A DNA stretch of 64,000 bases, from NCBI GenBank assembly GCA_903835075.1, contig CAILLM010000009.1, forward strand, positions 25,274-89,273, given 5' to 3'. The translations under genes were made by a program, and so were the position numbers. Within the stretch, counting starts at the first letter, position 1; each line of letters opens with the position of its first letter. The stretch comes from Candidatus Staskawiczbacteria bacterium (GTDB lineage Bacteria; Patescibacteriota; Minisyncoccia; Minisyncoccales; Staskawiczbacteraceae). Below the pieces are notes generated by a model. That model had not been told where the DNA came from and did no database searches. It saw only the letters and a list, made by a program, of their open reading frames with translations. Below, piece after piece: positions 20,179 to 57,338 of this stretch.

Positions 20179-21498
20179 ATGAAAAAGATAATCATAATTT
20201 TTGCGATTGTTGCTATCCTTGTATTAGGAATTGGTGGAAGTTATTTGATGTCATATTTTTTTTCCGGCACTAATTATGCCAGTATTTTTTCGTCGATAAT
20301 TAATACTAAGCCATCTATTCTTGTACTTAAATCAAGTTTTTTTAAGAATGATCCAATCGCAGTAAGCATAGCAAAAGGGAATGATTATCTTCTAAGCGAT
20401 TCCTTTGAGCATATTAATAGTTTTGAGTTTAAATTATTAAGCGCATTTAAGCAATTAGGTTTTGTAGGGCTAGGATACAGCGCTTATGATGGACAATCTC
20501 CGGTTAGTGGAGCTGTAAACTATTTTAGAAAAATTCATAGTATTCGGGCATCAAATTATCTTGATAAAAAAACCTTAGAGTTTCTAGATAAGGAGCTTGC
20601 ACAGAGAGAGATCAATGATAAAAAAGTTGCAACAACATATCCTCCATTTTCTAAATTTATGGATAGCCCTATTAATGAGCCACCTAAAGAACATCTTGCG
20701 ATGTTACTTGCTGGATTATTTGGGTCTTTGCCAAAAAATATCACAAGTTTTGAGGGATGTCATAATGTTTGGACGGTTGAAGAATTTAGAGATAGCTTAT
20801 CGTATGGTCTTGGGGGGAATTTAGGTAGATTTATTAGTGAAGATTCAACTAGATATCTTACGCCTCAAGAGTATAATGATTTGATATCAAACAATCAAAC
20901 AGATTTTAAATACTGTAATGATTTATATTATTCTGCTAATCAGCTAGATAATTGCTTAACCCCCGCCCTACATGTGAATACGCAGATTATGAGCGACTTT
21001 GATTATATTTATACTGTCACGCACGAATTCGGACATTCTGTTGCTTTTAATAGTGATAATTTAACTGATGTCAGTAAACCCAGTGGAATTTGTCTATTTG
21101 GTGGCATTTCTTTTGTTATGGATTCTTCCTGCCCTGCGGGACATGTTAGCATTTCTGATAAAAAGCGTGTAGATAATAACGGCGAATTTATTAGTGAATA
21201 TGCTAAAACTAATCAAGATGAGGACTTTGCAGAATCTTTTTCTGCTTACGTACTTGCTGGAGATGTCTTTAGAGAGAGAGCAAAAAGCAATTCATATTTA
21301 AAGCAAAAATACGATTTTTTGAAAAACAATGTCTTTGATAAAAGAGAATTTGATACAGGTGGTTTGGAACGTTATGAGCTTTGGAATTCAAAACATAATA
21401 GTTTACCAAATGTTGTGCGAGATTACTTCACCCAAGAGTCTAGCTGGGTATGGGATTACAAATATAATATATTAAAACAGAGTAAATGGTTTTTCTAA
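20179..21498 (+). CDS. membrane-anchored putative zinc metalloprotease
   Basis: 439 aa with an N-terminal TM helix and an HExxH motif (THEFGHSV). Confidence 0.45.
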   Translation: MKKIIIIFAIVAILVLGIGGSYLMSYFFSGTNYASIFSSIINTKPSILVLKSSFFKNDPIAVSIAKGNDYLLSDSFEHINSFEFKLLSAFKQLGFVGLGYSAYDGQSPVSGAVNYFRKIHSIRASNYLDKKTLEFLDKELAQREINDKKVATTYPPFSKFMDSPINEPPKEHLAMLLAGLFGSLPKNITSFEGCHNVWTVEEFRDSLSYGLGGNLGRFISEDSTRYLTPQEYNDLISNNQTDFKYCNDLYYSANQLDNCLTPALHVNTQIMSDFDYIYTVTHEFGHSVAFNSDNLTDVSKPSGICLFGGISFVMDSSCPAGHVSISDKKRVDNNGEFISEYAKTNQDEDFAESFSAYVLAGDVFRERAKSNSYLKQKYDFLKNNVFDKREFDTGGLERYELWNSKHNSLPNVVRDYFTQESSWVWDYKYNILKQSKWFF

Positions 21499-35175: not shown

Positions 35176-35670
35176 TTAATTAGTTTTTGAGAAAGCTTTT
35201 GCCATGTCTAGCCATTTTGGAGTTCTGGGATTATTTTTGTATTTTGCTGACGACTTATGAATTTCAATAAGTGAATTAACTTCATTTTTTTTCCAATCAG
35301 CTAAATTTTTACCTTTATTCCGTTGTAAAATTTCTACGGCCTTTACCCAAAGTTCAAAGTCTTTTTTCTTTTTGTCGGCTAAGGTATTTTTTTTAAAAAA
35401 TGGCACAACTGTTGAAGAAATATCATCTATCTTTTGTACTGAAAATCTTGCTTGGTCTTTTGAAGTTGAAACTTCGCCACAACCCAATTCTTTTTTTATT
35501 TTTTTTAAAATTTTAACATCATCTTTTGAAGCAGTAACAATAAATTGTGTTTTCCAACGGTAGTAGGTGGGTGAGCCCGTTCTTTCGTGACGTGTATCTT
35601 TTCTGAATTGTAAATCAAAACATCCGTCATTGTTTACAATTGTTGGAATATGAAATTCTTCTTTTGGCAT
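35176..35670 (-). CDS. free-standing LAGLIDADG-type homing endonuclease-like protein
   Basis: TIVNNDGCFDL (LAGLIDADG-like motif with D-G-C-F) and the family-typical tail ARFSVQKIDDISSTVVPFFKKNTLADKKKKDFELWVKAVEIL. Start set at MPKEEF because the longer ORF overlaps the metK promoter. Confidence 0.55.
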   Translation of the reverse strand: MPKEEFHIPTIVNNDGCFDLQFRKDTRHERTGSPTYYRWKTQFIVTASKDDVKILKKIKKELGCGEVSTSKDQARFSVQKIDDISSTVVPFFKKNTLADKKKKDFELWVKAVEILQRNKGKNLADWKKNEVNSLIEIHKSSAKYKNNPRTPKWLDMAKAFSKTN

Positions 35671-35718
35671 AATTACGCAATTTAATTTTTTATATGATTT
35701 TATTGTACCAAAAACTAT

Positions 35719-35729
35719 ATTATGCGACA
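35719..35729 (+). repeat. one-mismatch copy (ATTATGCGACA) of the island motif
   Basis: Differs at one position from ATTGTGCGACA. Lies just upstream of the LAGLIDADG gene start. Confidence 0.4.
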
Positions 35730-35748
35730 AGGGTGTGGATATCTGTAC

Positions 35749-35776
35749 TTGCATTGAATTTTTAGTTTGTTATAAT
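35749..35776 (+). promoter_or_regulatory. promoter of the SAM riboswitch-metK unit
   Basis: TTGCAT-N16-TATAAT. Confidence 0.5.
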
Positions 35777-35794
35777 TTAGACAATACAATTTAA

Positions 35795-35889
35795 CTATCA
35801 AGAGTGTGGCGAGAGTTCTGGCTCAATGACCCACCAGCAACCTACGTAGTCGCGTAAGGTGCTAAGTCCTGCCCAAGAGGGAAAGATAA
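35795..35889 (+). promoter_or_regulatory. SAM-I (S-box) riboswitch
   Basis: CTATCAAGAG...GGCGAGAG..CTGGCTCAATGACCCACCAGCAACC...AAGGTGCTAAGTCCTGCC...AAAGATA matches the S-box core blocks by eye. Located immediately upstream of metK. Confidence 0.8.
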
Positions 35890-35897
35890 ATTATATC

Positions 35898-35944: not shown

Positions 35945-36994
35945 ATGATTATAAATCAAAAAACATATGCAGTAGAAAGTGTAACATCGGGGCACCCCGA
36001 TAAAGTTTGTGATCAAATATCAGATGCAATTTTAGATGCTTGTTTGGCACAAGACCCAAACTCAAGAGTTGCAGTAGAATCTTTCGGCGGGCACGGAATG
36101 TTGGTTATTGGTGGGGAAGTTACAACAAATGCAAAAGTTGATTATCAGGCAATAGCAGACAAAGTATATAAAGAAATTGGTTACACACAAGAATTAAAAT
36201 TTACAATAAATGTTGTTGAGCAATCTCCAGACATTGCCATGGGCGTAAACACTGGCGGAGCAGGGGATCAGGGAATTATGTATGGTTATGCAACAAATGA
36301 AACTCCTGAATATATGCCTTGGGCTGTTGTAAAAGTCCATGCATTAGCAAAAGGTTTACAAAGCTTGCGGGAATCAGGAGAAATAAAATGGTTAAAACCA
36401 GATGGAAAGTCGCAAATAACCATGCAAGACGGCAAAGTAAAAAATGTTTTAATTAGCACCCAGCACAGTCCTGAAGCTTCACAAGAAGAAATTAAAACAA
36501 CTTTAACCGAAAAATTAATTAAGCCAATTTTGGGTGACGTTACTGGTGTAGATATATTTGTTAATCCAACTGGAAATTTTGTTCAGGGCGGTTTTGAAGC
36601 AGACACTGGCTTAACTGGTAGAAAAATTATGGTGGACACTTATTGCGGGTTAATTTCGCATGGTGGTGGCGCATTTTCAGGCAAAGACCCAAGCAAAGTA
36701 GACAGGTCAGCAGCTTATATGGCACGTTTTGCCGCAAAAAATATTGTTGCAAATGGTTATGCAAAGGAATGTTTGGTTTCAGTCGCTTATGCAATTGGAA
36801 TGGCCGAACCTTTAATGGTCTCTGCTGTTGATGAAAATGGAAAAAGCTTAGATGAATTAATTGCTAAGTTTGATTTCAAACCACAATCAATTATTCAAAC
36901 CTTAGAATTAAAACAGCCCATTTATCAAAAAACAGCAGCTTACGGCCACTTTGGAAAATCTGATTTGCCTTGGGAAAAAATAATAAAAATATAA
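35945..36994 (+). CDS. metK: S-adenosylmethionine synthetase
   Basis: ESVTSGHPDKVCDQISDAILDA, GAGDQGIMYGYA and GGGAFSGKDPSKVDRSAAY blocks. Confidence 0.95.
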   Translation: MIINQKTYAVESVTSGHPDKVCDQISDAILDACLAQDPNSRVAVESFGGHGMLVIGGEVTTNAKVDYQAIADKVYKEIGYTQELKFTINVVEQSPDIAMGVNTGGAGDQGIMYGYATNETPEYMPWAVVKVHALAKGLQSLRESGEIKWLKPDGKSQITMQDGKVKNVLISTQHSPEASQEEIKTTLTEKLIKPILGDVTGVDIFVNPTGNFVQGGFEADTGLTGRKIMVDTYCGLISHGGGAFSGKDPSKVDRSAAYMARFAAKNIVANGYAKECLVSVAYAIGMAEPLMVSAVDENGKSLDELIAKFDFKPQSIIQTLELKQPIYQKTAAYGHFGKSDLPWEKIIKI

Positions 36995-39880: not shown

Positions 39881-40594
39881 ATGCCAAAAAAAATAAACAC
39901 AGAAGCAAAAGATGGTGCAGAACTAGCAATCTTGCATAAGATTATAGAAACAATAAGTTACGACTTAAACTTAGAAGAAGTTTTGTCAAAAATTATAGAT
40001 ACTGTTGGAAAAGTCACAAAAGCTGATTCTTGTTTTTTATATTTAATTGATGGAAAAAACATTATTATGCGTGCATCACAAAATTCTCATCCTGGAATTA
40101 TTGGTAATATTAAATTAAAACTAGGGGAGGGAATTACTGGCTGGGTAGCTAAAAATAAAAAAACAGTTGCTATTCCTAAAAAAGCCTACGAAGATTACCG
40201 TTTTAAATTATTTAATAATTTACCAGAAGATAAATACGAAGCATTTTTATCAGTGCCCGTAATATACAAAAAAGAAACTTTAGGTGTTATAAATGTTCAA
40301 CATAAAAATTCTCAAAAATATTTTGACAGTGAAATAAAACTTTTTGAAACAATTGCCCGCGCAACAGGCGGGGCCATAGAAAATGCAAGACTTTTCACAG
40401 AAAGCCAAGAATTAAGAGAAACATTGGAAACCAGAAAAGCAGTAGAAAAAGCAAAAGGAATTTTAATGAAAGAAATGTCAATTTCTGAAGAAGATGCCTA
40501 CAAACTTTTAAATAAAAAAAGTATGGATAAAAGAATTTCAATGAAAGAAGTTGCTGATGCAATTCTAATTTCTGATGAATTGAGAAGGGGGTGA
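39881..40594 (+). CDS. GAF-ANTAR RNA-binding antitermination regulator
   Basis: 237 aa. N-terminal GAF-like region and C-terminal ANTAR block (RKAVEKAKGILMKEMSISEEDAYKLLNKKSMDKRISMKEVADAIL). Confidence 0.8.
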   Translation: MPKKINTEAKDGAELAILHKIIETISYDLNLEEVLSKIIDTVGKVTKADSCFLYLIDGKNIIMRASQNSHPGIIGNIKLKLGEGITGWVAKNKKTVAIPKKAYEDYRFKLFNNLPEDKYEAFLSVPVIYKKETLGVINVQHKNSQKYFDSEIKLFETIARATGGAIENARLFTESQELRETLETRKAVEKAKGILMKEMSISEEDAYKLLNKKSMDKRISMKEVADAILISDELRRG

Positions 40595-42258: not shown

Positions 42259-42285
42259 GCTCTGAGATTTCTCAGGGCTTTTTTA
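42259..42285 (+). terminator. hairpin + T-run terminator
   Basis: GCTCTGAG/CTCAGGGC followed by ttttttt. Confidence 0.75.
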
Positions 42286-42297
42286 TTCCAAAACATC

Positions 42298-42314
42298 TTA
42301 TTGTGCGACAAATT
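42298..42314 (+). repeat. island motif copy 1 (TTATTGTGCGACAAATT)
   Basis: 17/17 identical to 45293..45309; core ATTGTGCGACA at 42300..42310. Confidence 0.9.
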
Positions 42315-42376
42315 AACATTAAACCATCTTTGAAATAGGGTAGTTTTTTGGTAGTATTAAATAAACAAATAAACAA

Positions 42377-42922
42377 ATGGAAAATAATAATCAAATTGAA
42401 AAAGTAGCTTTTGGGGGTGGTTGTTTTTGGTGCACAGAAGCTGTGTTTTTAATTTTAAAGGGTGTGGTTGGCGTAACCCCAGGTTATGCTGGAGGGAGCA
42501 CTGAAAACCCAACATATGAACAAGTATCTTCTGGCAAAACAGGGCACGCAGAAGTGATATTAGTTGAATATAATCGGGACATTATATCTTTTGAAAAACT
42601 ATTAGAAGTTTTTTTTGATGCACACAGCCCAACTGAATTAAATAAACAAGGGAATGATGTGGGCACACAATATCGTTCTGTTTTGCTTTACTCAACCACT
42701 GAACAAAAAAATATTGCAGAAACTTACGTTGCAAAACTTACAGATGCTCATAAATATGAAAACCCAATAGTCACAGAAATAGTTCCACTAAATGAATTTT
42801 ATCCTGCCGAAGAATATCACAAAGACTATTATGCTAAAAACCCAAATTATGGTTATCCCATGTATATTATTAAGCCAAAAGTTGAGAAAATAAAAGAAAA
42901 ATATAATAACTTATTAAAATGA
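42377..42922 (+). CDS. msrA: peptide-methionine (S)-S-oxide reductase
   Basis: GGGCFWCTEAVF active-site block and HAEVILVEY. Confidence 0.9.
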   Translation: MENNNQIEKVAFGGGCFWCTEAVFLILKGVVGVTPGYAGGSTENPTYEQVSSGKTGHAEVILVEYNRDIISFEKLLEVFFDAHSPTELNKQGNDVGTQYRSVLLYSTTEQKNIAETYVAKLTDAHKYENPIVTEIVPLNEFYPAEEYHKDYYAKNPNYGYPMYIIKPKVEKIKEKYNNLLK

Positions 42923-43548
42923 CAATGTTAACTTTATTAATAATTATTATTGCTATAATAATTTTATGGTCTGCTTATGGATTTTTTTCTTCGCGCGTTG
43001 AACAAGCTGAATATAGTGTAATTAAAAAAATGTTAGGGTATGAAATAAGAAAATATCCTGTCCACATTGTTGCACAAACCACTGTAAGGGGAAATTATCA
43101 ATATGCTCTTAACGAAGGCTTTAGAATTGTTGCAGGATATATTTTTGGTAATAATTCAAAAAAACAGGGCATTGCAATGACAGCTCCAGTTGTTTCGCAG
43201 AATGCAGGTTCAGAAAAAATTTCTATGACAGCTCCCGTTTTGGCAACTACAAAAGGGGAGTCACATGTCATATCTTTTGGAATGCCGCGTTCTCAAACTT
43301 TGCAAACATTGCCAGAGCCGGGCGACCCAAGGGTGAAAATTGTTGAAATACCTGCAAAGCAATTTGCAGTCATTAGGTTTTCTTGGTCGCGCACAGATGA
43401 GAAAATTAAGAAAATGGAAACTAAATTACTCAAACTAATTTCACGTGATAATTTGCAGGTAATAGGTAGTCCAATTTATGCAGGATACAATGCTCCCTGG
43501 ACTCCACCGTGGATGGCAAGAAATGAAGTAATGATAGAAATCAAATAG
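42919..43548 (+). CDS. SOUL heme-binding family protein
   Basis: YEIRKYP...GFRIVAGYIFGNN...IAMTAPV...MTAPV...EIPAKQFAVIRFSW...AGYNAPWTPPWMARNEVMIEI. Confidence 0.75.
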   Translation: MTMLTLLIIIIAIIILWSAYGFFSSRVEQAEYSVIKKMLGYEIRKYPVHIVAQTTVRGNYQYALNEGFRIVAGYIFGNNSKKQGIAMTAPVVSQNAGSEKISMTAPVLATTKGESHVISFGMPRSQTLQTLPEPGDPRVKIVEIPAKQFAVIRFSWSRTDEKIKKMETKLLKLISRDNLQVIGSPIYAGYNAPWTPPWMARNEVMIEIK

Positions 43549-43572
43549 TACTATCGACTTCGTAGAACATAT

Positions 43573-43583
43573 ATTTCGCGACA
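43573..43583 (+). repeat. two-mismatch copy (ATTTCGCGACA) of the island motif
   Basis: Located 25 nt after the SOUL-family stop codon, before a terminator. Confidence 0.35.
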
Positions 43584-43600
43584 TTATTATTAGACAGACT

Positions 43601-43629
43601 AAAAAAGCTGAGTTTGCACTCGGCTTTTT
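43601..43629. terminator. hairpin terminator flanked by A- and T-runs
   Basis: AGCTGAGT-ttgc-ACTCGGCT tttt. Confidence 0.65.
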
Positions 43630-43673
43630 GATTGTGTTGAAACTTTATTGAAAAAGGAGTAAATTATACTAAT

Positions 43674-44513
43674 ATGGATAAAAAAATCCTTTCCGGAATT
43701 AAACAAAAGCCATACTTCACTGAGGGAAATTTTGTTTTATATAATCAAGATAGTATTGAGCTGCTTAAAGAGCTACCAGAAAATTCTATTGATATGATTT
43801 TTGCCGATCCTCCATATAATTTATCAAATGGGGGATTTAGCGTGCATGCAGGGAAAATGGTTAGCGTTAATAAGGGAGATTGGGATAAGAGCAGGGGCTT
43901 TGATGGTGATTATGAATTTCACTATAAATGGTTGGAAGCCTGTAAAAGAGTCTTAAAGCCTGGCGGAACATTATGGGTTAGCGGTACATATCATTCAATA
44001 TATCAGTGTGGGTTTGCTTTACAGTCCTTGGGTTATCATATTTTAAACGATATATCTTGGTTTAAACCAAATGCTAGTCCAAATTTAAGTTGCAGGTTTT
44101 TCACCGCCAGCCACGAGACCTTAATATGGGCAAGAAAGGACAAAAAGGCAAAACATACTTTTAATTATGATCTAATGAAAAATGGTAACTGGCCCGAAGA
44201 TCAATTAAAAAAACCAAATCTCCAAATGCGTTCTGTTTGGGCAATAGGAACCCCAAGACCAAATGAAAAAAGGTTTGGCAAGCATCCAACTCAAAAACCA
44301 ATAGATTTACTTAATAGAATTGTATTGGCGAGTACGAACAAAAATGATGTTGTCTTAGATCCTTTTACCGGAAGCTCAACTACTGGGCTTGTTGCAACCA
44401 CGAGTGGAAGAAAATTTATTGGAATTGATACAGAAAAAAAATATTTAGATTTATCGATTAAAAGATTAAAAGATTTAAATCAAAATATAAAAAATATAAT
44501 TAAATTCGCTTAA
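43674..44513 (+). CDS. DNA methyltransferase, beta-class N6-adenine/N4-cytosine (type II)
   Basis: Motif IV FADPPYNL precedes motif I DPFTGSSTTG (beta-class order). Confidence 0.85.
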   Translation: MDKKILSGIKQKPYFTEGNFVLYNQDSIELLKELPENSIDMIFADPPYNLSNGGFSVHAGKMVSVNKGDWDKSRGFDGDYEFHYKWLEACKRVLKPGGTLWVSGTYHSIYQCGFALQSLGYHILNDISWFKPNASPNLSCRFFTASHETLIWARKDKKAKHTFNYDLMKNGNWPEDQLKKPNLQMRSVWAIGTPRPNEKRFGKHPTQKPIDLLNRIVLASTNKNDVVLDPFTGSSTTGLVATTSGRKFIGIDTEKKYLDLSIKRLKDLNQNIKNIIKFA

Positions 44514-44514
44514 T

Positions 44515-45285
44515 ATGGCAAATAGTAAATCATGGGATAAAATTTTTAGAGATTATAAAATTCTAGAACATAATTTTGATAAGGAGCCATTTAAATTATC
44601 TGCGTTACAGATTAAAAAATCTTGTCAAAAATTTAAAGATACGAGCGAGAAAGAAGTTCGCATACTTTGCAAGCAAGATACTAGAGAACAAAGACCCGAA
44701 ATTTTTATAAAGAATGGTTTGTTTTTGTTACCAGTTAAAAACGGTTTCTATAACATTATAAAAGGAGAGGGTTATGTCGACATTCCTACTATTGATAATG
44801 AAATAATCATATATGCCTCTAAACTGGATTTTAAGCTAGACACGGCGGGTATTGGTGATTCTGAAATGCAACACTTAGATTATGCTTATGCGGCAAGTTT
44901 GATTAGAACTTTTGCAGAGGATCCTTCCTTAGTTTTAACTATACGTGGAAGGAAATATACACCCAATTTTAATTTTTATGTAGGAAAACAACTAATCGAT
45001 GTTTCTAGCGTGCAGACTGAGGTGGACGCTGGATATGAAGGTAAGAAACAAATTGTTTTGATCGAAGCTAAAAATTTTAATGCTAGCAATATTATAATAA
45101 GACAACTATTCTATCCATATCGGCAATGGCAGGAACATACGAATAAAAAAGTAGTAACATTATTTTTTGATAAAGATCTTGGCGGAAACGTGTATTCAAT
45201 ATGGCAATTTGAGTTTAGTAATCCTCAAGATTATAATAGTATCAAGCTTGTTAAATCTGGAAAATTTAAAATAGAAGAAAAATAG
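44515..45285 (+). CDS. putative type II restriction endonuclease (PD-(D/E)XK)
   Basis: Starts 2 nt after the methyltransferase stop. TEVDAGYEGKKQIVLIEAKN provides a D...EAK catalytic-type motif. Specificity unknown. Confidence 0.5.
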   Translation: MANSKSWDKIFRDYKILEHNFDKEPFKLSALQIKKSCQKFKDTSEKEVRILCKQDTREQRPEIFIKNGLFLLPVKNGFYNIIKGEGYVDIPTIDNEIIIYASKLDFKLDTAGIGDSEMQHLDYAYAASLIRTFAEDPSLVLTIRGRKYTPNFNFYVGKQLIDVSSVQTEVDAGYEGKKQIVLIEAKNFNASNIIIRQLFYPYRQWQEHTNKKVVTLFFDKDLGGNVYSIWQFEFSNPQDYNSIKLVKSGKFKIEEK

Positions 45286-45292
45286 GATCATT

Positions 45293-45309
45293 TTATTGTG
45301 CGACAAATT
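45293..45309 (+). repeat. island motif copy 2 (TTATTGTGCGACAAATT)
   Basis: Core at 45295..45305, 9 nt after the endonuclease stop codon. Confidence 0.9.
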
Positions 45310-45325
45310 GATAAATAATTGTTGA

Positions 45326-45988
45326 ATGGAAATGAAAAAAAATAAAAATATTAAAATTATACTACCAACCGGATATATAAATATATCTATTCCAAAAATA
45401 ACCATGAAGTTAGAATCTGGATATTTAATTACCTCTAATAAGGAAAAATGCAGAGGGTTAATTGAGGAGTCGCCCCTAAATGACAACGATATTATTGATA
45501 TATTAGTAAGTCTTCATCTAGTTTTAGAAGTGGGTCTAAATACGATGTATCGACACTTGATGTTAAGGGATATAAAGAAAGATATAGATAAATTTGAGAT
45601 TATGAAAAATATAGATAATATAAATTTTATCGATAAGACGATAATGTTTATATACAACTCTAAATTTGATTTTGAAGGCAAGCTTGGCGAAGCCACAAGA
45701 TATCATAGCATTATTAACGCGCTTCGTGATTTTTCTGGGGTGAGAAATAAACTGCTTCATGGCCATTCAATAAGTACAATATCAGATGGGGAGAAAATTA
45801 AAAATTCAGAGGTTAAAAATATGCTTAATCCTGGTTTTTTGAAGGAGCAAATTGGAAAATTCTGTTTTATTATGGAGGGTATGCGTTTTTATTTAAACTG
45901 TTTGGACTCTGGGACGAGTGATGCCGACAAGGAACAATTTAGCAAATCGTATTTGGACGATAGTTTTTTACCTTTACTAAGAACATAG
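45326..45988 (+). CDS. hypothetical protein with a HEPN-type RNxxxH signature
   Basis: 220 aa. GVRNKLLHGH at residues 138-147 (nt 45743..45760 encode RNKLLH) in a predicted helical protein. Nothing else recognised. Confidence 0.4.
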   Translation: MEMKKNKNIKIILPTGYINISIPKITMKLESGYLITSNKEKCRGLIEESPLNDNDIIDILVSLHLVLEVGLNTMYRHLMLRDIKKDIDKFEIMKNIDNINFIDKTIMFIYNSKFDFEGKLGEATRYHSIINALRDFSGVRNKLLHGHSISTISDGEKIKNSEVKNMLNPGFLKEQIGKFCFIMEGMRFYLNCLDSGTSDADKEQFSKSYLDDSFLPLLRT

Positions 45989-45999
45989 ATTCTATTTAT

Positions 46000-46010
46000 A
46001 TTGTGCGACA
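46000..46010 (+). repeat. island motif copy 3
   Basis: ATTGTGCGACA 11 nt after the stop codon of the HEPN-signature gene. Confidence 0.9.
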
Positions 46011-46073
46011 CTTTAATAAACTCAGCGTAGGCGTAACGTCGCGAAAGATACCTTTACCGAACAAGCAAAGAAT

Positions 46074-46099
46074 CCATCTTTTAATTGAGGTGGTTTTTT
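46074..46099 (+). terminator. hairpin + T6 terminator
   Basis: CCATCTT/GAGGTGG (with G:U pairs) followed by tttttt. Confidence 0.5.
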
Positions 46100-46118
46100 G
46101 TTGGTGGTATAATAAAAT

Positions 46119-46424
46119 ATGAAAAATATATTTAAAAATTACGCAGACTATTTTAAAGATAACCCACATGGTTATTGGTTCAGAAAAAAGCTTTATGGGT
46201 GGGGGTGGACGCCCGTAACGTGGCAGGGGTGGCTTGTTGTGGGTGTATATATTCTATGTATTACCTTATTTGCTTTTACAATAGATGAAAACTCACCACC
46301 AAACGAATTGATGTTTACGTTTTTTCTTCCTATCGCTTTACTAACGGCCGTGCTTATTCGCATAGCATACAAAAAAGGTGAAAAGCCAAGCTGGCAGTGG
46401 GGGCCACCTAAGAAAGACAAATAA
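46119..46424 (+). CDS. small two-TM membrane protein
   Basis: 101 aa with two hydrophobic helices and a Trp-rich N-terminus. Confidence 0.45.
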   Translation: MKNIFKNYADYFKDNPHGYWFRKKLYGWGWTPVTWQGWLVVGVYILCITLFAFTIDENSPPNELMFTFFLPIALLTAVLIRIAYKKGEKPSWQWGPPKKDK

Positions 46425-46485
46425 ATTATATAAATTATATCGCTACGCTAAAAAATTTAAAAAATTAACAGTAAAAATTTTCGAT

Positions 46486-46848
46486 ATGGATGAAGAAGAA
46501 ATAAAAAATAAATTAACTCCAGAGCAATACAAAGTTTTAAGGGAGAAGGGGACAGAAGTCCCTTTTACGGGGAAATATGTGCACAAAACAGAAAATGGAA
46601 ACTATGTTTGCATGGTGTGTGGCAACCTTTTATTTTCATCTGATGCTCAATTTGATTCTGGCACTGGCTGGCCGAGTTTTGATAAGCCCATTGAAGGGTC
46701 GGTTGAATATAAAGATGACCACGGAGCAACCGAGATAATTTGTTCAAACTGTAAATCTCATTTGGGGCATGTTTTTAATGATGGCCCAACAGAAACGGGA
46801 AAGAGATATTGTATAAATTCAGTTTGTTTAAACTTAAAAAATAAATAA
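46486..46848 (+). CDS. msrB: peptide-methionine (R)-S-oxide reductase
   Basis: Start moved to MDEEEIKNKLTPEQYKVLREKGTE. CMVC...CSNC zinc Cys pairs and the RYCINS active site. Confidence 0.9.
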   Translation: MDEEEIKNKLTPEQYKVLREKGTEVPFTGKYVHKTENGNYVCMVCGNLLFSSDAQFDSGTGWPSFDKPIEGSVEYKDDHGATEIICSNCKSHLGHVFNDGPTETGKRYCINSVCLNLKNK

Positions 46849-46891
46849 CGCGTTGTGTGTATTAAATTTTTTAATACGATTTGATATAATA

Positions 46892-46992
46892 ATCATAGAT
46901 TGGGTTAAAGTTATCTACGGTTGGAGTCAGTTGACATAATCTTATCTACGGATTATACTATTAATCGTAGATAGTAAATAACATATCTACGG
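46892..46992 (+). promoter_or_regulatory. fic promoter (TTGACA-N17-TATACT) embedded in a five-copy 9-nt operator-like array
   Basis: TATCTACGG at 46912-46920, 46943-46951 and 46984-46992. Inverted TATCTACG at 46966-46973 and a one-mismatch inverted copy at 46892-46900. -35 at 46931-46936 and -10 at 46954-46959. Confidence 0.5.
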
Positions 46993-47013
46993 TTCAATAA
47001 AGGAACAAAACAT

Positions 47014-48141
47014 ATGAGAAGCGGAAAATATATCAGCCAAGTATCTAAAGATAAAATTCCATACAAGGCATTCAGCCCGGGGAATTTACCATTCAAAATT
47101 AATTTTGACGAAGAGCTTCAATCCTTACTTTCTAAGGCTGACTTAGCATTGGGGAGACTGGATGGAATTGCTGAAACATTACCTGATGTTGATTTTTTCA
47201 TTTTGATGTATATCAGAAAGGAGGCCACGCTTTCCAGCCAAGTTGAAGGGACACAAGCCACCTTCGCGGATGTTTTGAATGCAGAAGCAAAAATAGAAGA
47301 CTTAGAAATACATAAAGATGTAGACGAAATTTTGAATTATGTTGATGCAATGAATTATGGACTAACTGGCTTAAAAAAAATCCCCTTATCTTTAAGGTTA
47401 ATAAAAGAGATCCATCGACTTCTACTTTCAGGTGTTAGGGGTGAATGGAAAGAGCCAGGAGAATTTAAGAAAACACAGAATTGGGTTGGAGGAACCGCTA
47501 TTGAAAGAGCGTCTTTTATTCCTTGCCCACCACAAGAAGTGATGGCGGCTCTGGATAACTTTGAAAAATTTCTGCATCAAAATTCTCAACTTCCAGTTCT
47601 AATTAAAACTGGTTTAATACATAGTCAGTTTGAAAATATTCACCCATTTTTAGATGGTAACGGCAGAATCGGTAGACTTTTAATTACATTTTATTTGTGC
47701 CAACAGAAATCTTTGGACAAACCGTTGCTATATCTTTCAGATTTTTTTAAGAAATATCGCCAAGAGTATTATGACAGACTCAATGCAGTTCACGAAAAAG
47801 ACGATATAGAAGGCTGGCTTAAATTTTTTCTTGAAGGAGTAGCCACAACTGCAAGTCAGGCTGTCGAAACAAGTAAAAAGATAATTAAACTGAAAGAAGC
47901 GGATATAAAAAAAATAGCAACCCTTGGTAGATCCACTATCAAGGCTATGGTAGTTTTTAGTTATTTATTTCACACACCAACCGTAAGGGTGAAAGATGTA
48001 GAAAAAATTACGGGATTAAAAAATCCTAATGCTTTAGCATTAATAAGTAAATTAGTGAAAATAGAAATTCTAAAAGAAATTACAGGCAGAAAAAGAAACA
48101 AAGTTTTTAGATATCAAAACTACGTAAACCTTTTCGAGTAA
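47014..48141 (+). CDS. Fic family protein (AMPylase-type) with a C-terminal wHTH-like region
   Basis: Fic motif HPFLDGNGRIGR; 375 aa. Confidence 0.85.
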   Translation: MRSGKYISQVSKDKIPYKAFSPGNLPFKINFDEELQSLLSKADLALGRLDGIAETLPDVDFFILMYIRKEATLSSQVEGTQATFADVLNAEAKIEDLEIHKDVDEILNYVDAMNYGLTGLKKIPLSLRLIKEIHRLLLSGVRGEWKEPGEFKKTQNWVGGTAIERASFIPCPPQEVMAALDNFEKFLHQNSQLPVLIKTGLIHSQFENIHPFLDGNGRIGRLLITFYLCQQKSLDKPLLYLSDFFKKYRQEYYDRLNAVHEKDDIEGWLKFFLEGVATTASQAVETSKKIIKLKEADIKKIATLGRSTIKAMVVFSYLFHTPTVRVKDVEKITGLKNPNALALISKLVKIEILKEITGRKRNKVFRYQNYVNLFE

Positions 48142-48146
48142 TTTTT

Positions 48147-48157
48147 ATTGTGCGACA
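48147..48157 (+). repeat. island motif copy 4
   Basis: ATTGTGCGACA 5 nt after the fic stop codon, before the bidirectional terminator. Confidence 0.9.
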
Positions 48158-48171
48158 AAACATTATTAAAT

Positions 48172-48201
48172 AAAAAGTAGGGAATTAAGCCCTACTTTTT
48201 T
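48172..48201. terminator. bidirectional terminator between fic and the YdeI-like gene
   Basis: GTAGGG-aattaag-CCCTAC flanked by an A-run and a T-run. Confidence 0.75.
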
Positions 48202-48452
48202 GGTCTATGCGGACAGCCGGGCCAACAGCAGGGCCGACGCATTTCATCTATAAGTTCCGAGCAAACTCTTTTAACGTGGTCGGCTCTTGTTTCAGCTCCT
48301 TTAACTGAAATAGTCCAACAGATCCACTCGTTGCGAGATAGTGGAGTTATGTCTTCCCATTTTGCCAATGCTTTTGGATTGGCGAGTAATGCCTTTTTTA
48401 AATCAGCTGGTAATTCGTGCACTACACCATTTGAAATATTTTTATTAACCAT
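48192..48452 (-). CDS. YdeI/OmpD-associated family protein
   Basis: 86 aa. LPADLKKALLANPKALAKWEDITPLSRNEWICWTISVKGAETRADHVKR resembles the YdeI C-terminal family. Confidence 0.55.
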   Translation of the reverse strand: MVNKNISNGVVHELPADLKKALLANPKALAKWEDITPLSRNEWICWTISVKGAETRADHVKRVCSELIDEMRRPCCWPGCPHRPKK

Positions 48453-48467
48453 ATTATTAATACGTTT

Positions 48468-49463
48468 TTATTTTTTATCTGGATCACTGTGGAATTGGTG
48501 ATGTATGTCACGCAATCGTTTATTTGTTACGTGCGTATAAATTTGAGTCGTTGCGATATTTGAGTGGCCAAGAAATTCCTGAATGCTACGAAGGTCAACT
48601 CCTTGATTCATTAAATCTGTTGCATAACTGTGGCGCAATGTGTGCGGAGTTGTGAAAACTGGAATGCCTGAAAGTAGGGCATATTTTTTTACAATGCGTT
48701 CAATTGAACGCGGGGTGAGCCTTGGATCAGCTTTTTCGGACTTGTCGCCTGCACTGAGCGTAGCCGAAGGGCGAAAGTTTATAAACAAGGCTTTTGAATG
48801 CATACTTTTTGCAGCGTTCCTAATTTCTAAATATTTTTTTATATATTCTAGCGCGCGTTCAGAAAAATAAACTGTGCGAGGTTTTCCACCTTTTCCAATT
48901 ATTCCAAGTTCTAAATCTTTTCTGTTTTTTAAGTTTTCAAATTGTTCGAGGTTTAACGCAACTAATTCTGCAATACGCAAACCAGTTGAAAAAAAGCTCT
49001 CTAAAATAGCGCGGTCCCTGATACTTATATCATCCTTAGGATCTATAGATGACAAAAGCTTGGCAATTTGATCTAAGGTAAGGAATTTTATGCTTTTTAG
49101 GCCTCTATCTGCCTTTGCAAGGGCTATTTTGTCAGGAGGGGTGCATTGTATGTCTTTTGCCACAAAATAGCCCAAAAGGGCTCTTAGGGCTATTAAATAG
49201 TAGTTTTGTGTGCCTTTGCCTAGCAATTTGCCCGTAGCAGGGCTTGGGGTGCGGGAAAGGTACAAACGGTATGCCCAAATATGCTCCGAGGTCAATTGAT
49301 GGGGGAGAATAGAGCTATTTTTACTTATATCAAGCCAGCTAAAAAATTTAATTAAATAATTTTTATAATTCTCCTGAGTATTTTTTCTTAAACCTTTTTC
49401 AACTTCACAAAAATCAAGAAAATCTTGAAGATGTTGTTTAATTGGTTTGTTAGAATTATTCAT
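48468..49463 (-). CDS. tyrosine recombinase (XerC/XerD/integrase family)
   Basis: 331 aa. N-terminal SAM-like core-binding domain, TGLRIAEL, HTLRHSYATDL and LGHSNIATTQIYTHV. Confidence 0.85.
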   Translation of the reverse strand: MNNSNKPIKQHLQDFLDFCEVEKGLRKNTQENYKNYLIKFFSWLDISKNSSILPHQLTSEHIWAYRLYLSRTPSPATGKLLGKGTQNYYLIALRALLGYFVAKDIQCTPPDKIALAKADRGLKSIKFLTLDQIAKLLSSIDPKDDISIRDRAILESFFSTGLRIAELVALNLEQFENLKNRKDLELGIIGKGGKPRTVYFSERALEYIKKYLEIRNAAKSMHSKALFINFRPSATLSAGDKSEKADPRLTPRSIERIVKKYALLSGIPVFTTPHTLRHSYATDLMNQGVDLRSIQEFLGHSNIATTQIYTHVTNKRLRDIHHQFHSDPDKK

Positions 49464-49514
49464 TGTTTTAGATGAATCTTAATTGGGCCCCTTGGGATAC
49501 GTCGCTTTACCTAC

Positions 49515-49525
49515 ATTTTGCGACA
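49515..49525 (+). repeat. one-mismatch copy (ATTTTGCGACA) of the island motif in the recombinase leader
   Basis: Lies 14 nt beyond the predicted -10 of the recombinase promoter. Confidence 0.5.
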
Positions 49526-49538
49526 TTGCCTCTATCTC

Positions 49539-49567
49539 TATAATACACCCCCCTCAGCCCAGGTCAA
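49539..49567 (-). promoter_or_regulatory. predicted recombinase promoter
   Basis: Minus strand reads TTGACC-N17-ATTATA, with a second TTGACC immediately upstream. Confidence 0.4.
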
Positions 49568-49595
49568 GGTCAAAATAGACGACCTAAACATCAAC

Positions 49596-50006
49596 TTATT
49601 TTGTGGGTGTTGTAACAGGCGGACAATTTTGCGGAGTCCCCGGCTTTGTAATACTATTGGCAATTCCAGAAAAATAATTTTCAGTTTTTTTTAAAATATT
49701 TTCAGAATTATTTTTTTTGTCAGTTGAATTAACAATTATTACTGCTGCTCCCCCGCTTTTAGACCCTTCTGCTACTTTTGAGACGACGTTTGTATTAACC
49801 CATGCAGATCCTTTTGACAGCTGGGCACCTGCCTGATTATTTGCTGCTGAGATGAGGTTTTGACCAACCTGCTTAAAATATATTTGCTGGCTTAAAAAAA
49901 CAAACACTAAAATAAAAATTATTGCAATTACTGGTAAAATAAAATTCTTTTCCACGGGTCTGCGAGCGAGGCGAACAGATTTGCTTCGGAAATCAAGCCC
50001 AGACAT
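49596..50006 (-). CDS. membrane-anchored hypothetical protein
   Basis: 136 aa with a single TM helix (ILPVIAIIFILVFVFL). No motif recognised. Confidence 0.4.
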   Translation of the reverse strand: MSGLDFRSKSVRLARRPVEKNFILPVIAIIFILVFVFLSQQIYFKQVGQNLISAANNQAGAQLSKGSAWVNTNVVSKVAEGSKSGGAAVIIVNSTDKKNNSENILKKTENYFSGIANSITKPGTPQNCPPVTTPTK

Positions 50007-50065
50007 ATCTTACACATTGCGGGTTTGATTTACGCTGAACACCTTACTGGGTTAATTATATATTA

Positions 50066-50076
50066 TGTCGCACAAT
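50066..50076 (-). repeat. island motif copy 5 (inverted)
   Basis: tgtcgcacaat on the plus strand. This is ATTGTGCGACA on the minus strand, 4 nt after the exonuclease stop codon. Confidence 0.9.
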
Positions 50077-54386: not shown

Positions 54387-57338
54387 TTATTTTGATAGTT
54401 TTTTAACTGCTTCTACAAACTGCCTGCCCCTGTCAAATTCATTTTTAAAGAGATTAAAACTTGCAGCTCCTGGCGAAAGAATAACGACATCTCCTTTTTT
54501 AGATAATTTTTTAGCTTCTTTTACAGCTTCTTGCATTGAAAAAACTTCGTGCATTCGTGTGTATCCTTGCATGTGTTTTTTTATTTCATCAGATGCTGTG
54601 CCTGGAAGCATTATTATTTCATCTACTTTTTCTCTAATTATTTTAGCCATTTCATTATATTTTAATCCTTTATTCTGCCCACCACAAATCAAAATTAATC
54701 GTGAATCTGGAAAATGCTCAAGAAAAACTTGAACTGTTATTATTGTGGCCTCTGGCGTGGTAGCGCTTGTGTCCTCAAAATATTTTACACCTTTTATTTC
54801 CCCTACTAGTTGTCGACTTGTTGAGATTTTTCCAAATTTTTTCACTAAAAATTTAAACTGATTTCCTTTTTCTTCAAAATTTTTCCAAAGAGTATAGCTT
54901 GGCGAAGCACAAGATAGCAGACATATTTTACCAGGCTTGGTATGTTCATAAGCAAAGATTATTGCATCTTCCATGCTTTCAGTTTGTAAAATATTTAATC
55001 CTTCTGTCGATTTAAATATTTTGGCACCGGTTTTAGGAAATAAAACAATATTTTTAATGCCAGATTTTTTAATTGTTTTTTCTAATTCAAAAAAATTATA
55101 TCCGCGATCCTCTCCTCCCAGAAAAATTGTATCAACGTTTTTTAAAGAATCAATGGCCAATATGGTTGATTCTGGCGTTGTTGAGATTGCATCATCATAA
55201 AACTTAATATTTTTAAATTCTCCTACAAGCTCAAGCCTGTGTGGCAATGGCTGGAACTTCTCAATTGCTATTTTTATTATTTTTTCTGAAATGTTAAGTT
55301 CTTTTGCAACAGAAATTGCAGCGCTTACGTTTTCTTTATTGTGTTCCCCAATTAGTGGTACGTGAATATTTTCAGAAAAATTTGTCTTTTCAAAAGAAAT
55401 ACATCTAGACTCTGTTTCGTTTGCCCATTCTCTTAAAATCTTACTATTGTTATTGTATATAAAAATATCATGATTGTTTTGAAAATTTATTATATTTTTC
55501 TTTGCCATATAATAGTTTTCAGCCCCATTGTGGTAATCCATGTGTTCTGGAAATAAAGTTGTAACTACCGCTATATTTGGCGAAAACTCTATGTCAGCTA
55601 ATTGATAGCTGGATAATTCCAATACAAAAATTTCTTTTTTATCAATGGGCTCTAGGAGGGCTTCAAGCATTGGATTTCCAATGTTGCCCAAAAGTCTAAC
55701 CTTTTTACCGGATTCCTTTAATATGGAATAAATTAATGAAGCAGTTGTTGACTTCCCCTTGCTTCCTGTTATTCCTATGATTGTATTCCCGCATTCTTTT
55801 ATTTTAGAAAAAAAGATATTAGTAGCAGTAGTATATGGGATTGTAATTAATTCCTTTTTTATTCCAGGAGTTTTTATCGCTAAGTCGTAATTTGTTTGTT
55901 TTTTTAAGTAGCTTTTTCCATTTTTTTCATCAGCAATATCTATTTTCAGATTAGGATATTCTTTTTCAATAAATTTTTGTGTTACCTTACCTTCTTTTCC
56001 ATAACCAATAATTAAAACGTTATCCATGCCAGAAAATCGGAATTGGCTTGGAACGTTTGGAGCTAGTTGTGTTTTAAACAAGTTTGTTACATCGTCTTTT
56101 TTTACGTTAACCTTGGGCCAAAGTGATTTAACTATAAAATCACTTTTAAATTTATCTCTTCCCAATATAAATGCTGTTTTTGATTCTTCAAAAGTCCCCA
56201 CGCAGTCAAATGGCTTCATTTCTCCTAGGCCAAAAATGTTTTTGAATAATGGCAAAAGACGTTCGTCTTCATACAGATTTTTTTTGAAAATATTTAATAA
56301 ATCTTTTTTTGTTAAAAAACCTGAAAGTAGCGTAAAGGAAAAAACACACTTTGGACAAGACCCGCACCAAAGACCATTTTTCTCTTCTTTTATTAATTTA
56401 AAGTTTTTATTACAACTTGAAAAATAAGGAAAATATTGGTTATATTGTGAAAATAATTTAGCAATGCGTAGTTCATAAAAAGGACGCACCAAAGAAAAGT
56501 ATTTTATATCTTTTGATATGCAATTATAAATATAATCGGAAAAAATATTTTCAAATTCAGAAGATTTTGACCACTGGTGATTTACAATTTTCCCTTTGTA
56601 TTCTGTATTTCCAAAATTACTGCTATATTCGTTTGCTACTACAAAATATGAATGTTTATTAAGAACAGAATAAAAAATTCCTAAAAATGCATATATCATA
56701 GAAATAGGTATATGGCCTTCATATTTGTGATTATCAAAGACCTGTTTATCTAGCACTCTTTTTATTTTCACAAAATCAATGTGCATTTTTTTAGCTAAAT
56801 CATCAACTAAAACAGATCCCCTGTTTGTTTCGGTAAACATTGCAGAAATTTTAAAGCCCTGTTTTTTTAATAATTCAGCGGCAACGATCGAGTCTTTTCC
56901 ACCAGAAAGAGCAACTAGGCAATTATTGTTTTGGGCTAAGGGGTATGTTTTGTCTTCTTTATTTTTGTTACAAGGGAATTTGGGTGATTTTTTAGGATCT
57001 AGTTTGTTTCTGAAATAAAATTCGCCCAGGCCTGCTTGATAAATTGTATTCCAAAAATTAGCTTCTTTTTTAGAGAGAATGTAATTAATTTTTACTTTTG
57101 GTGCACAATAAAATTTATAGTAACTTATTCCAATAGCTAAATGCAGACTTTCTAATAATTTTTTGATTAATTCTTCCGAGATATCTTTTGTATCCCAAAT
57201 TTTGGGCAATGTTATTGTCTCTGTGAAAAGTAAAGGATCTTTATTACTAAATTCTTGCTTGTAATTAAAGAGGATCTTTTTATTTTCGGGTTCGAACTTG
57301 TATGAGGTGAATTCAAAAATAGTTATTTTACTATCCAT
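54387..57338 (-). CDS. murD: fusion protein: PP-loop ATP-pyrophosphatase-like domain + complete MurD-like ligase + a second MurD C-terminal domain
   Basis: 983 aa. SGGKDS at residues 145-150 (nt 56889-56906). The MurD part runs from about residue 438 (NVLIIGYGKEG, GITGSKGKSTT, HRLELVGEF...LLSCASPSYTLWKNFEEKGNQF). A second C-domain runs from about residue 840 (RQLVGEIKGVKYFEDTSATTPEA...ILSPGAASFNLFKNEFDRGRQF). Confidence 0.8.
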   Translation of the reverse strand: MDSKITIFEFTSYKFEPENKKILFNYKQEFSNKDPLLFTETITLPKIWDTKDISEELIKKLLESLHLAIGISYYKFYCAPKVKINYILSKKEANFWNTIYQAGLGEFYFRNKLDPKKSPKFPCNKNKEDKTYPLAQNNNCLVALSGGKDSIVAAELLKKQGFKISAMFTETNRGSVLVDDLAKKMHIDFVKIKRVLDKQVFDNHKYEGHIPISMIYAFLGIFYSVLNKHSYFVVANEYSSNFGNTEYKGKIVNHQWSKSSEFENIFSDYIYNCISKDIKYFSLVRPFYELRIAKLFSQYNQYFPYFSSCNKNFKLIKEEKNGLWCGSCPKCVFSFTLLSGFLTKKDLLNIFKKNLYEDERLLPLFKNIFGLGEMKPFDCVGTFEESKTAFILGRDKFKSDFIVKSLWPKVNVKKDDVTNLFKTQLAPNVPSQFRFSGMDNVLIIGYGKEGKVTQKFIEKEYPNLKIDIADEKNGKSYLKKQTNYDLAIKTPGIKKELITIPYTTATNIFFSKIKECGNTIIGITGSKGKSTTASLIYSILKESGKKVRLLGNIGNPMLEALLEPIDKKEIFVLELSSYQLADIEFSPNIAVVTTLFPEHMDYHNGAENYYMAKKNIINFQNNHDIFIYNNNSKILREWANETESRCISFEKTNFSENIHVPLIGEHNKENVSAAISVAKELNISEKIIKIAIEKFQPLPHRLELVGEFKNIKFYDDAISTTPESTILAIDSLKNVDTIFLGGEDRGYNFFELEKTIKKSGIKNIVLFPKTGAKIFKSTEGLNILQTESMEDAIIFAYEHTKPGKICLLSCASPSYTLWKNFEEKGNQFKFLVKKFGKISTSRQLVGEIKGVKYFEDTSATTPEATIITVQVFLEHFPDSRLILICGGQNKGLKYNEMAKIIREKVDEIIMLPGTASDEIKKHMQGYTRMHEVFSMQEAVKEAKKLSKKGDVVILSPGAASFNLFKNEFDRGRQFVEAVKKLSK

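Follow-up and report, generated by a model that had tools for sequence, protein, structure and literature searches.

The 64,000-nt stretch of Candidatus Staskawiczbacteria DNA analysed here (the window; all coordinates are window positions) contains several copies of the 11-mer ATTGTGCGACA. In the window and in related genomes, these copies form two opposed arrays that converge on a short operon, consisting of a gene for a small membrane protein and a gene for a Xer-family tyrosine recombinase (xer), and on a 28-bp imperfect palindrome in the xer leader. The surrounding genes converge on the same point. We give an even chance to the reading that the copies are isolated Xer-binding arms, that is, strand-polar half-sites of a dif-type recombination site, converging on xer and its linked dif-like site at the probable replication terminus and kept by selection as chromosome-architecture signals. 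The Candidate Phyla Radiation (CPR, or Patescibacteria), to which these bacteria belong, is almost wholly uncultured, and we know of no information on termination, chromosome dimer resolution, or chromosome organization in it. In the searchable literature no description of such a motif array, or of Xer, dif, or FtsK-orienting polar sequences (KOPS), was found for CPR bacteria, and the exact motif string was found only in unrelated papers.

The window has six perfect copies of the 11-mer, with 0.02 expected by chance; no shuffled sequence reached six. A preliminary description of this stretch had listed five of them, judged them far above chance, and held that none lay outside 42.3-50.1 kb. The five positions and strands and the excess over chance are all borne out, but a sixth copy is found at 58067-58077 (-). 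As also described, four of the five lie 4-11 nt past a stop codon (gaps of 9, 11, 5, and 4 nt for the copies at 45295, 46000, 48147, and 50066); the fifth, at 42300, follows a terminator, ~15 nt beyond the T-run at 42259-42278; and the first two have the longer word TTATTGTGCGACAAATT in common. Near copies with a single mismatch are indeed present at 35719 (ATTATGCGACA) and at 49515-49525 (ATTTTGCGACA), the latter downstream of a minus-strand TTGACC-N16/17-TATTAT promoter. The earlier list was incomplete in omitting another at 22559 (+), and its entry at 43573 (ATTTCGCGACA) has two mismatches, not one. The distribution is strongly polar: all plus-strand perfect copies are before 48.2 kb and all minus-strand copies beyond 50 kb, gene orientation flips at ~48.15 kb, and there are no perfect copies in the 42 kb of the window furthest from xer. 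The copy at 48147 is the counterpart of an xer-proximal copy present in every relative, and that at 50066 of a conserved copy after gltX, upstream of the small membrane-protein gene; the near copy at 35719 marks the distal end of a variable region.

The same 11-mer recurs in loci from ~25 species, each of which was oriented with xer on the plus strand for counting. Left of xer, 35 of 36 perfect copies are on the plus strand, the sole minus-strand copy being the leader copy of one locus (L148; L-numbers designate related loci). Right of xer, 51 of 53 are on the minus strand and two on the plus strand. With the leader copy excluded, 86 of 88 copies keep the polarity expected for their side (p = 2.5e-23). 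Every species has a plus-strand copy 0.3-1.0 kb upstream of xer, directly behind whichever gene precedes the small membrane-protein gene, and a minus-strand copy 0 to 0.35 kb past the xer stop codon. The conserved core positions (after gltX, after xer, and before a LAGLIDADG gene) are occupied whatever the cargo, and in cargo-free genomes as well, where two direct copies are retained 19-30 nt apart. This conservation at core positions, even where there is no cargo, does not fit the earlier impression that the motif was private to one accessory block. At least nine right-side minus-strand copies are flanked by two plus-strand genes (xer and LAGLIDADG), so motif orientation goes with the side of xer and not with the neighboring gene.

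A logo of 89 copies gives the extended form tTTT-ATTGTGCGACA-AA(t), with no information outside positions -4 to +14. For the dispersed copies, no second inverted arm was detected at a distance of 3-9 nt: the logo carries no signal there, and pair scoring returned chance partners only. The more distant L148 (63% identical Xer) has three two-armed inverted sites of the form xGxCGCAxAAx-N4-xTxGTGCGACA instead of isolated half-sites, at -9953, -3012, and -70 from the xer start. Motif orientation differs between species in one place only, the convergent LAGLIDADG/uppS junction (L226 9816-9839; L140 +2016; L152 +1188; L155 6490); in L226 the two orientations occur there as a head-to-head pair, 2 nt apart. 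A hairpin of the type GAGGGAATTGGGCCCTC is found 15-25 nt past the xer-proximal copy in the window (~48175-48200), L144, L150, L142, and, twice, L006, in which the segment comprising motif and hairpin is duplicated on either side of a gene designated c18 (c-numbers and u160 denote genes or gene clusters in the loci).

Copies within coding sequence suggest that the DNA word itself is maintained. Sense-strand copies in core genes use all three reading frames: TAT TGT GCG ACA (YCAT) in murL of seven species and in the DUF11-like gene of the window, ATT GTG CGA CAA (IVRQ) in murD of five species, and TTA TTG TGC GAC AAA (LLCDK) near the 3' end of gltX in four. Of these last four, three have a gltX-c5 spacer of 8-19 nt without a copy (c5 being the small membrane-protein gene), and the fourth (L131) has an intergenic copy as well. 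Codon choice in the coding copies is constant, always the rare GCG (14% of Ala) or CGA (8% of Arg), with variation at the synonymous sites on either side, and species with a different amino acid at the motif position use common codons. This consistent choice of rare codons amid varying synonymous sites indicates selection at the DNA level for the word at particular positions, which would not be predicted from a role as a cassette junction. Some species have, in place of murD, a long MurL_N/epimerase-Mur ligase fusion, while others keep a short murD; the fusion and the short gene each have their own in-frame motif copy (window 54387-57338 (-); L006 1319-3844; L008 3151-5658).

The recombinase at the center of the arrays has a PF00589 domain and SAM-like N-terminal domains, and its best PDB match is XerD (1a0p, 4e-32). 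It matches the NCBIfam models for XerD (1.8e-62), XerC (4e-60), and XerA (7e-51), in each case below the equivalog cut-off. Homologues at 75-90% identity make up more than 100 protein clusters, synteny is fixed in 24 loci, and no paralogous recombinase was found within the window. This conserved syntenic Xer is not an integron integrase: its scores with the integron-integrase models TIGR02249 (106.7 bits vs. a cut-off of 265) and NF011946 (56.6 vs. 435) are far too low.

The leader palindrome, (A)TGTCGCAAAATGTAGGTAAA(G/C)CGACGT, lies between the promoter and the start codon of xer; among 22 species its first 19 nt do not vary. Its 5' arm is the motif with one change, except in L147 and L148, more distant loci whose arm matches the motif perfectly. 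L150, whose Xer is 55% identical, has one and the same G4-to-A variant in the leader arm and in each of its six dispersed copies; leader and dispersed copies are therefore probably read by a single protein. The palindrome fits the 11-6-11 layout of dif. Its similarity to the Thermococcus kodakarensis site (PMC11840125) extends to 9 of 11 bases of the dif arm TTATATGACAA, for the sequence TTATGCGACAA (the A-variant plus one base), and to 4 of 6 bases of the spacer (TGTAGG vs. TGTACC). There are also precedents for recombinase-linked sites: xerS is directly linked to difSL in streptococci (PMC5357621), and a dif-like site is found upstream of the haloarchaeal xerA operon (PMC11840125). A scan of the window for the canonical bacterial dif consensus gave 34 matches vs. 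30 expected, the level of chance. Given its layout, its likeness to the T. kodakarensis site, and these precedents, we propose the leader palindrome as the candidate dif of these genomes. Its position immediately past the promoter would also suit an operator through which xer may regulate itself. An RNA hairpin was considered for the leader and rejected: the 5' part is invariant but the 3' arm varies without compensating changes, so that no hairpin is maintained.

Gene orientation in 23 loci places xer at a point of convergence, with plus-strand genes predominating 181:7 on the left and minus-strand genes 201:31 on the right. If the leading strand switches at xer, genes encoded head-on should have a lower third-position GC (GC3) skew on both sides. 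Pooled coding-strand GC skew at four-fold sites is -0.056 for co-oriented genes, -0.13 for head-on genes on the left, and -0.21 for those on the right, a weak support in that the head-on genes are few and often the same orthologues. In L213 (Ga0101944_10000029), orthologues of the genes at 2.3-11.5 kb of the window (37-46 kb from xer) are on the opposite side, still facing xer, which suggests inversions symmetric about the xer point, as expected at a terminus. The xer/dif-like zone is likely the replication terminus.

The 18-mer TTTTATTGTGCGACAAAT was used to scan metagenome contigs, with at least 120 matches listed. Among these, 46 stretches include at least one gene of the xer neighborhood (xer, gltX, c5, murG, ftsW, LAGLIDADG, uppS, or pyrG); ~61 other low-GC stretches have the motif beside unrelated housekeeping genes (e.g., mraZ-mraW-ftsI, L7/L12, L21, RuvC, LeuRS); and 13 high-GC stretches are probably chance matches. 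For the housekeeping stretches among the matches listed, coding copies are 25 sense vs. 4 antisense and flanking genes 340 co-oriented vs. 70 opposed; part of this group merely represents DNA farther from xer in the gltX direction. Three long contigs have extra copies at 17, 27, and 42 kb from xer, with the polarity expected for their side, and contigs of 581 and 694 kb have the 18-mer form once or twice, only at or near xer. The motif is thus strongly concentrated around xer, yet not confined there. A 14-mer scan of viral contigs yielded at least 120 single matches, in a chance-like pattern. A DNA-uptake sequence and a Chi site were also considered and rejected, the copy number being far too low and the copies locally concentrated.

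Gene order around xer is conserved across species (24 loci). One side has a DUF11-like gene, murD or murL, ftsW, murG, gltX, the small membrane-protein gene, and xer; the other has convergent genes leading to LAGLIDADG, uppS, L27, pyrG, L9, and ctpB. The unit formed by the small membrane-protein gene and xer lies between two hot spots, whose genes are co-oriented and mostly species-unique, the second and smaller hot spot being between gltX and the small membrane-protein gene. The block from msrA to Fic is missing at the syntenic position in relatives, and was therefore rightly described as accessory. Coordinates of these features and of the motif copies are collected below.

Features of the xer neighborhood in the window, ordered by position
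Feature	Start	End	Strand	Remarks
One-mismatch copy ATTATGCGACA	35719	35729	+	Between LAGLIDADG gene and metK riboswitch; orthologous copies perfect in relatives
Perfect motif	42300	42310	+	Distal boundary of msrA..Fic block; ~15 nt past T-run of terminator 42259-42278
Accessory block	42377	48141	+	msrA, SOUL, N6/N4 methyltransferase, DUF6996/6997, orphan, small open reading frame (ORF), msrB, Fic
Two-mismatch copy ATTTCGCGACA	43573	43583	+	After SOUL gene, upstream of restriction-modification module
Perfect motif	45295	45305	+	9 nt past stop of DUF6996/6997 gene (methyltransferase partner)
Perfect motif	46000	46010	+	11 nt past stop of 220-aa orphan
Perfect motif	48147	48157	+	5 nt past Fic stop, then GGGAATT..CCC hairpin
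YdeI/OmdA-like accessory gene	48192	48452	-	Between xer and proximal copy; common to L144 only
Xer-family tyrosine recombinase, 331 aa	48468	49463	-	Conserved syntenic core gene of Staskawiczbacteria
28-bp imperfect palindrome, xer leader	49499	49526	-	xer strand: ATGTCGCAAAA TGTAGG TAAAGCGACGT; holds near copy 49515-49525
Sigma-70-like xer promoter TTGACC-N16/17-TATTAT	49540	49567	-	Conserved in relatives
Small single-pass membrane protein (cluster c5)	49596	50006	-	Conserved; always precedes xer
Perfect motif	50066	50076	-	4 nt past stop of RNase T-like accessory gene
RNase T-like accessory gene	50081	50626	-	Second hot spot, between gltX and motif
Perfect motif, sixth	58067	58077	-	Sense, inside 753-aa DUF11-like ORF 57431-59692; codons TAT TGT GCG ACA

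Some neighboring genes deserve brief mention. The N6/N4 DNA methyltransferase and the DUF6996/6997 protein (43674-45285) resemble a restriction-modification module; L145 has a homologous methyltransferase, likewise between two motif-like copies, with a non-homologous partner gene. At the Rfam gathering threshold the block has no hits, and elsewhere in the window Rfam matches just a SAM riboswitch and a tRNA. The riboswitch, of the SAM-I type (58 bits; 35792-35892 (+)), is ahead of metK (35945-36994), and a motif-like copy is found ~20 nt upstream of the -35 hexamer of the metK promoter in both the window and L129. The LAGLIDADG gene (35176-35754 (-); cluster c7) is free-standing and adjoins uppS in 17 of 24 related loci, with a motif copy nearly always ~40 nt upstream of its start, on the opposite strand; it looks domesticated rather than intron-borne. 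A GAF-ANTAR RNA-binding regulator of the antiterminator type (39881-40594 (+)) is encoded in the variable region and is common to L129. L275/L276, from the RIFOXYC1_FULL_38_18 species, encode a large serine recombinase (Resolvase, Recombinase, and Zn ribbon domains; 20429-20972) ~10 kb from xer, beyond the L9 gene.

If the copies are Xer half-sites, the extended word tTTT-ATTGTGCGACA-AA would be a conserved, strand-polar protein recognition site of Staskawiczbacteria-type CPR chromosomes, and each dispersed copy would provide one Xer-binding arm, unable to recombine alone. The two-armed leader site would be the place where the single Xer resolves chromosome dimers, and would probably also repress xer. 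The polar half-sites would mark and organize the dif/terminus zone; they may load or orient Xer, or else serve as directional barriers, or as unloading sites, for SMC, a translocase, or replication forks coming from the side of the origin. The same zone would be the main landing place of accessory genes, so that the motif comes to punctuate them.

Several observations weigh against this proposal. The case that Xer recognizes the motif is built on linkage and on resemblance between sequences. The second arm of the leader site is weak (5 of 11 bases mismatched), and by mismatch score it is no better than chance pairs. The terminus assignment rests on gene convergence and the weak GC3 comparison, with no origin located, and raw GC skew in the window does not switch cleanly: it is negative from 48 kb and positive again past 58 kb. 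The copy at the LAGLIDADG/uppS junction flips its orientation between species, and about half of the low-GC metagenome matches listed are outside any recognizable xer neighborhood and co-oriented with genes. Motif density, finally, tracks accessory genes and not distance from xer. The interval from xer to LAGLIDADG has 0.99 copies per kb (0.84 per ORF) vs. 0.09 in the adjacent core genes, and core genes equally near xer are sparse in copies. The 5.8-kb segment from msrA to Fic is exactly between the copies at 42300 and 48147; at the corresponding place L129 and L006 have a single copy, analogously flanked. A purely architectural model predicts neither this accessory-linked density nor the bounding of msrA..Fic by two copies.

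These last two observations are better accommodated if the copies are cassette-boundary sites at which the adjacent recombinase inserts, excises, and shuffles modules, in the style of integrons, of integrative mobile elements exploiting Xer (IMEX), or of pdif modules. This was the explanation first suggested for the locus, and we now consider it unlikely. Part of it stands. Direct copies punctuate the two hot spots around xer; copy number rises with the number of accessory genes (Spearman 0.72, p = 0.001); the distance from stop codon to motif is often 4-20 nt; homologous methyltransferase modules are found between motif-like copies in the window and L145; gene c18 of L006 is enclosed by duplicated segments of motif and hairpin; and c17 and c18 occur to the left as well as to the right of xer, in each case in the orientation of the motif nearby. 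The sites are, however, one-armed: they have neither a second recombinase arm nor an attC-like inverse core, and inverse-core partners within 150 nt of copies were not enriched over control positions. Insertions (c17, c22, u160, and others) go with one copy and not two, and the GNAT gene c17 is to the left of a single copy in L130 and L132 but to its right in L006. The c5-xer segment is inverted in none of the 24 loci despite perfect inverted copies 1.5 kb apart; its constant orientation relative to gltX also speaks against a shufflon or invertible segment. Copies are found in constrained core coding sequence (murD/murL/gltX) and, 17-42 kb away, beside housekeeping genes, and the recombinase belongs to the conserved core and is a Xer instead of an IntI.

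Comparisons among strains and species bear on the same question. For three species, 5, 10, and 6 contigs (21 in total) from different samples, with identical recombinases within species, were compared; all are collinear, with identical motif positions, and the single apparent strain difference (in L288) is a point mutation. The gain, loss, or permutation of modules at the motif that the cassette explanation had foreseen is thus not found in these 21 contigs. The msrA..Fic block is bounded exactly by motif copies; modules shared between species show no sharp homology break at the motif. A hybrid could be imagined in which a housekeeping Xer has a second task at the terminus, to drive gene capture in the manner of an integron, its single-arm sites both organizing the dif zone and serving insertion and excision, with the result that two opposed arrays of defense and stress cassettes are built up. 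This seems improbable to us, and the full integron-like reading falls between improbable and unlikely.

It is also improbable, on our estimate, that the reader is a protein other than Xer, the motif being either a translocase-orienting sequence, analogous to the KOPS of FtsK or the SpoIIIE recognition sequences (SRS), or a Ter-like polar fork barrier, with its likeness to the leader site incidental or regulatory. The strand switch at xer and its dif-like site, the higher density nearby, and correct polarity to at least 42 kb would all follow, and the low copy number, the two opposed groups, and the inverted pair at the promoter of the adjacent gene recall Ter and rtp of Bacillus subtilis. KOPS, SRS, and architecture imparting sequences (AIMS) are nevertheless 7-8-mers present in hundreds of copies, while this motif is an 11-17-mer present in roughly 10-20 per genome; the covariation of leader and dispersed copies suggests that the same protein reads both and is active at the xer promoter too; and no gene for FtsK, Tus, or RTP turned up in the window, although no search was aimed at them. 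A gene-linked element, whether a transcription-factor operator, a roadblock to RNA polymerase or aid to termination, or an RNA motif of the 3' untranslated region, is very improbable. It would suit the usual placement of copies 4-100 nt past a stop codon, oriented as the gene that ends there, the copies that adjoin terminators, those preceding msrA and metK, each with a -35-like hexamer 19 nt downstream, and the copy at the LAGLIDADG/uppS junction, which is oriented as whichever gene precedes it. The outlying metagenomic copies, since they follow gene orientation, might have such a role. It does not suit the copies between xer (+) and LAGLIDADG (+), which are antisense to both, or the coding copies in three frames; some copies precede terminators and others follow them, so that not all are transcribed; the genes downstream of the copies have no relation to one another, and Rfam gives no match; the leader arm varies without compensatory change, with no RNA hairpin kept; and the strong concentration around xer is left unexplained. 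No single model accounts for both the facts of polarity and constraint and those of the accessory genes.

Should the half-site proposal be correct, a polar word converging on xer and a dif-like site would provide a terminus landmark in metagenome-assembled genomes. The leader palindrome is a concrete candidate for the first CPR dif site. The system is also a testable case of recombinase half-sites as chromosome-architecture signals outside the Firmicutes. The arrays further locate the main accessory-gene hot spots of these genomes, and one may ask whether gene capture is promoted by sites to which Xer is bound.

Among known systems, the Tus-Ter and RTP-Ter fork barriers likewise have some ten polar sites, in two opposed groups around the terminus. 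In B. subtilis, two inverted sites overlap the promoter of the neighboring gene, which encodes the binding protein. The site described here differs in resembling a recombinase arm, and no homologue of Tus or RTP turned up, although no search was aimed at them. KOPS, SRS, and AIMS (PMC2958812, PMC5357621) share with the present motif a strand bias that switches at the dif-like site (86 of 88 copies here, with distant copies keeping the polarity), co-orientation with leading-strand genes, and a greater density near dif; the motif is much longer (11-17 nt), much rarer, mostly intergenic, and dif-arm-like.

Integrons and the pdif modules of Acinetobacter (PMC12907356, PMC11705084) resemble this locus in having diverse, co-oriented accessory genes, split by a short repeat, beside a tyrosine recombinase. 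Here, however, the arrays are on both sides of the recombinase and in opposite orientation, copies are found in core coding sequence, and no permutation of cassettes is seen in the contigs compared. An IntI-type integrase is absent, as are structured attC sites (inverted repeats of 57-141 nt with inverse core and core), and where Acinetobacter has alternating, full 28-bp XerC-spacer-XerD sites, there are half-sites only, direct within each array. There is also a likeness to xerS-difSL (PMC5357621) and the site linked to haloarchaeal xerA (PMC11840125), in which a single Xer is similarly linked to an asymmetric site with one strong and one weak arm; those have no reported flanking arrays of half-sites, and the candidate site here is inside the 5' leader of xer itself.

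Also among the nearest systems are the XerD-binding sites of B. subtilis, dedicated Xer-recombinase sites that act independently of recombination at dif. In the work of Karaboja et al. (2021), as summarized in PMC10945525 and PMC8357415, XerD bound to such sites in the terminus unloads SMC. The present sites differ in several respects: they go with the single Xer of a CPR bacterium, the 11-mer is perfectly conserved and polar and converges on xer itself, and the copies are packed within ~10 kb and interleaved with accessory genes. In both cases, though, there appear to be extra, non-recombining sites clustered in the terminus region, in the present one as single arms that match the leader arm, perfectly in L147 and L148 and with one mismatch elsewhere, and cluster around xer.

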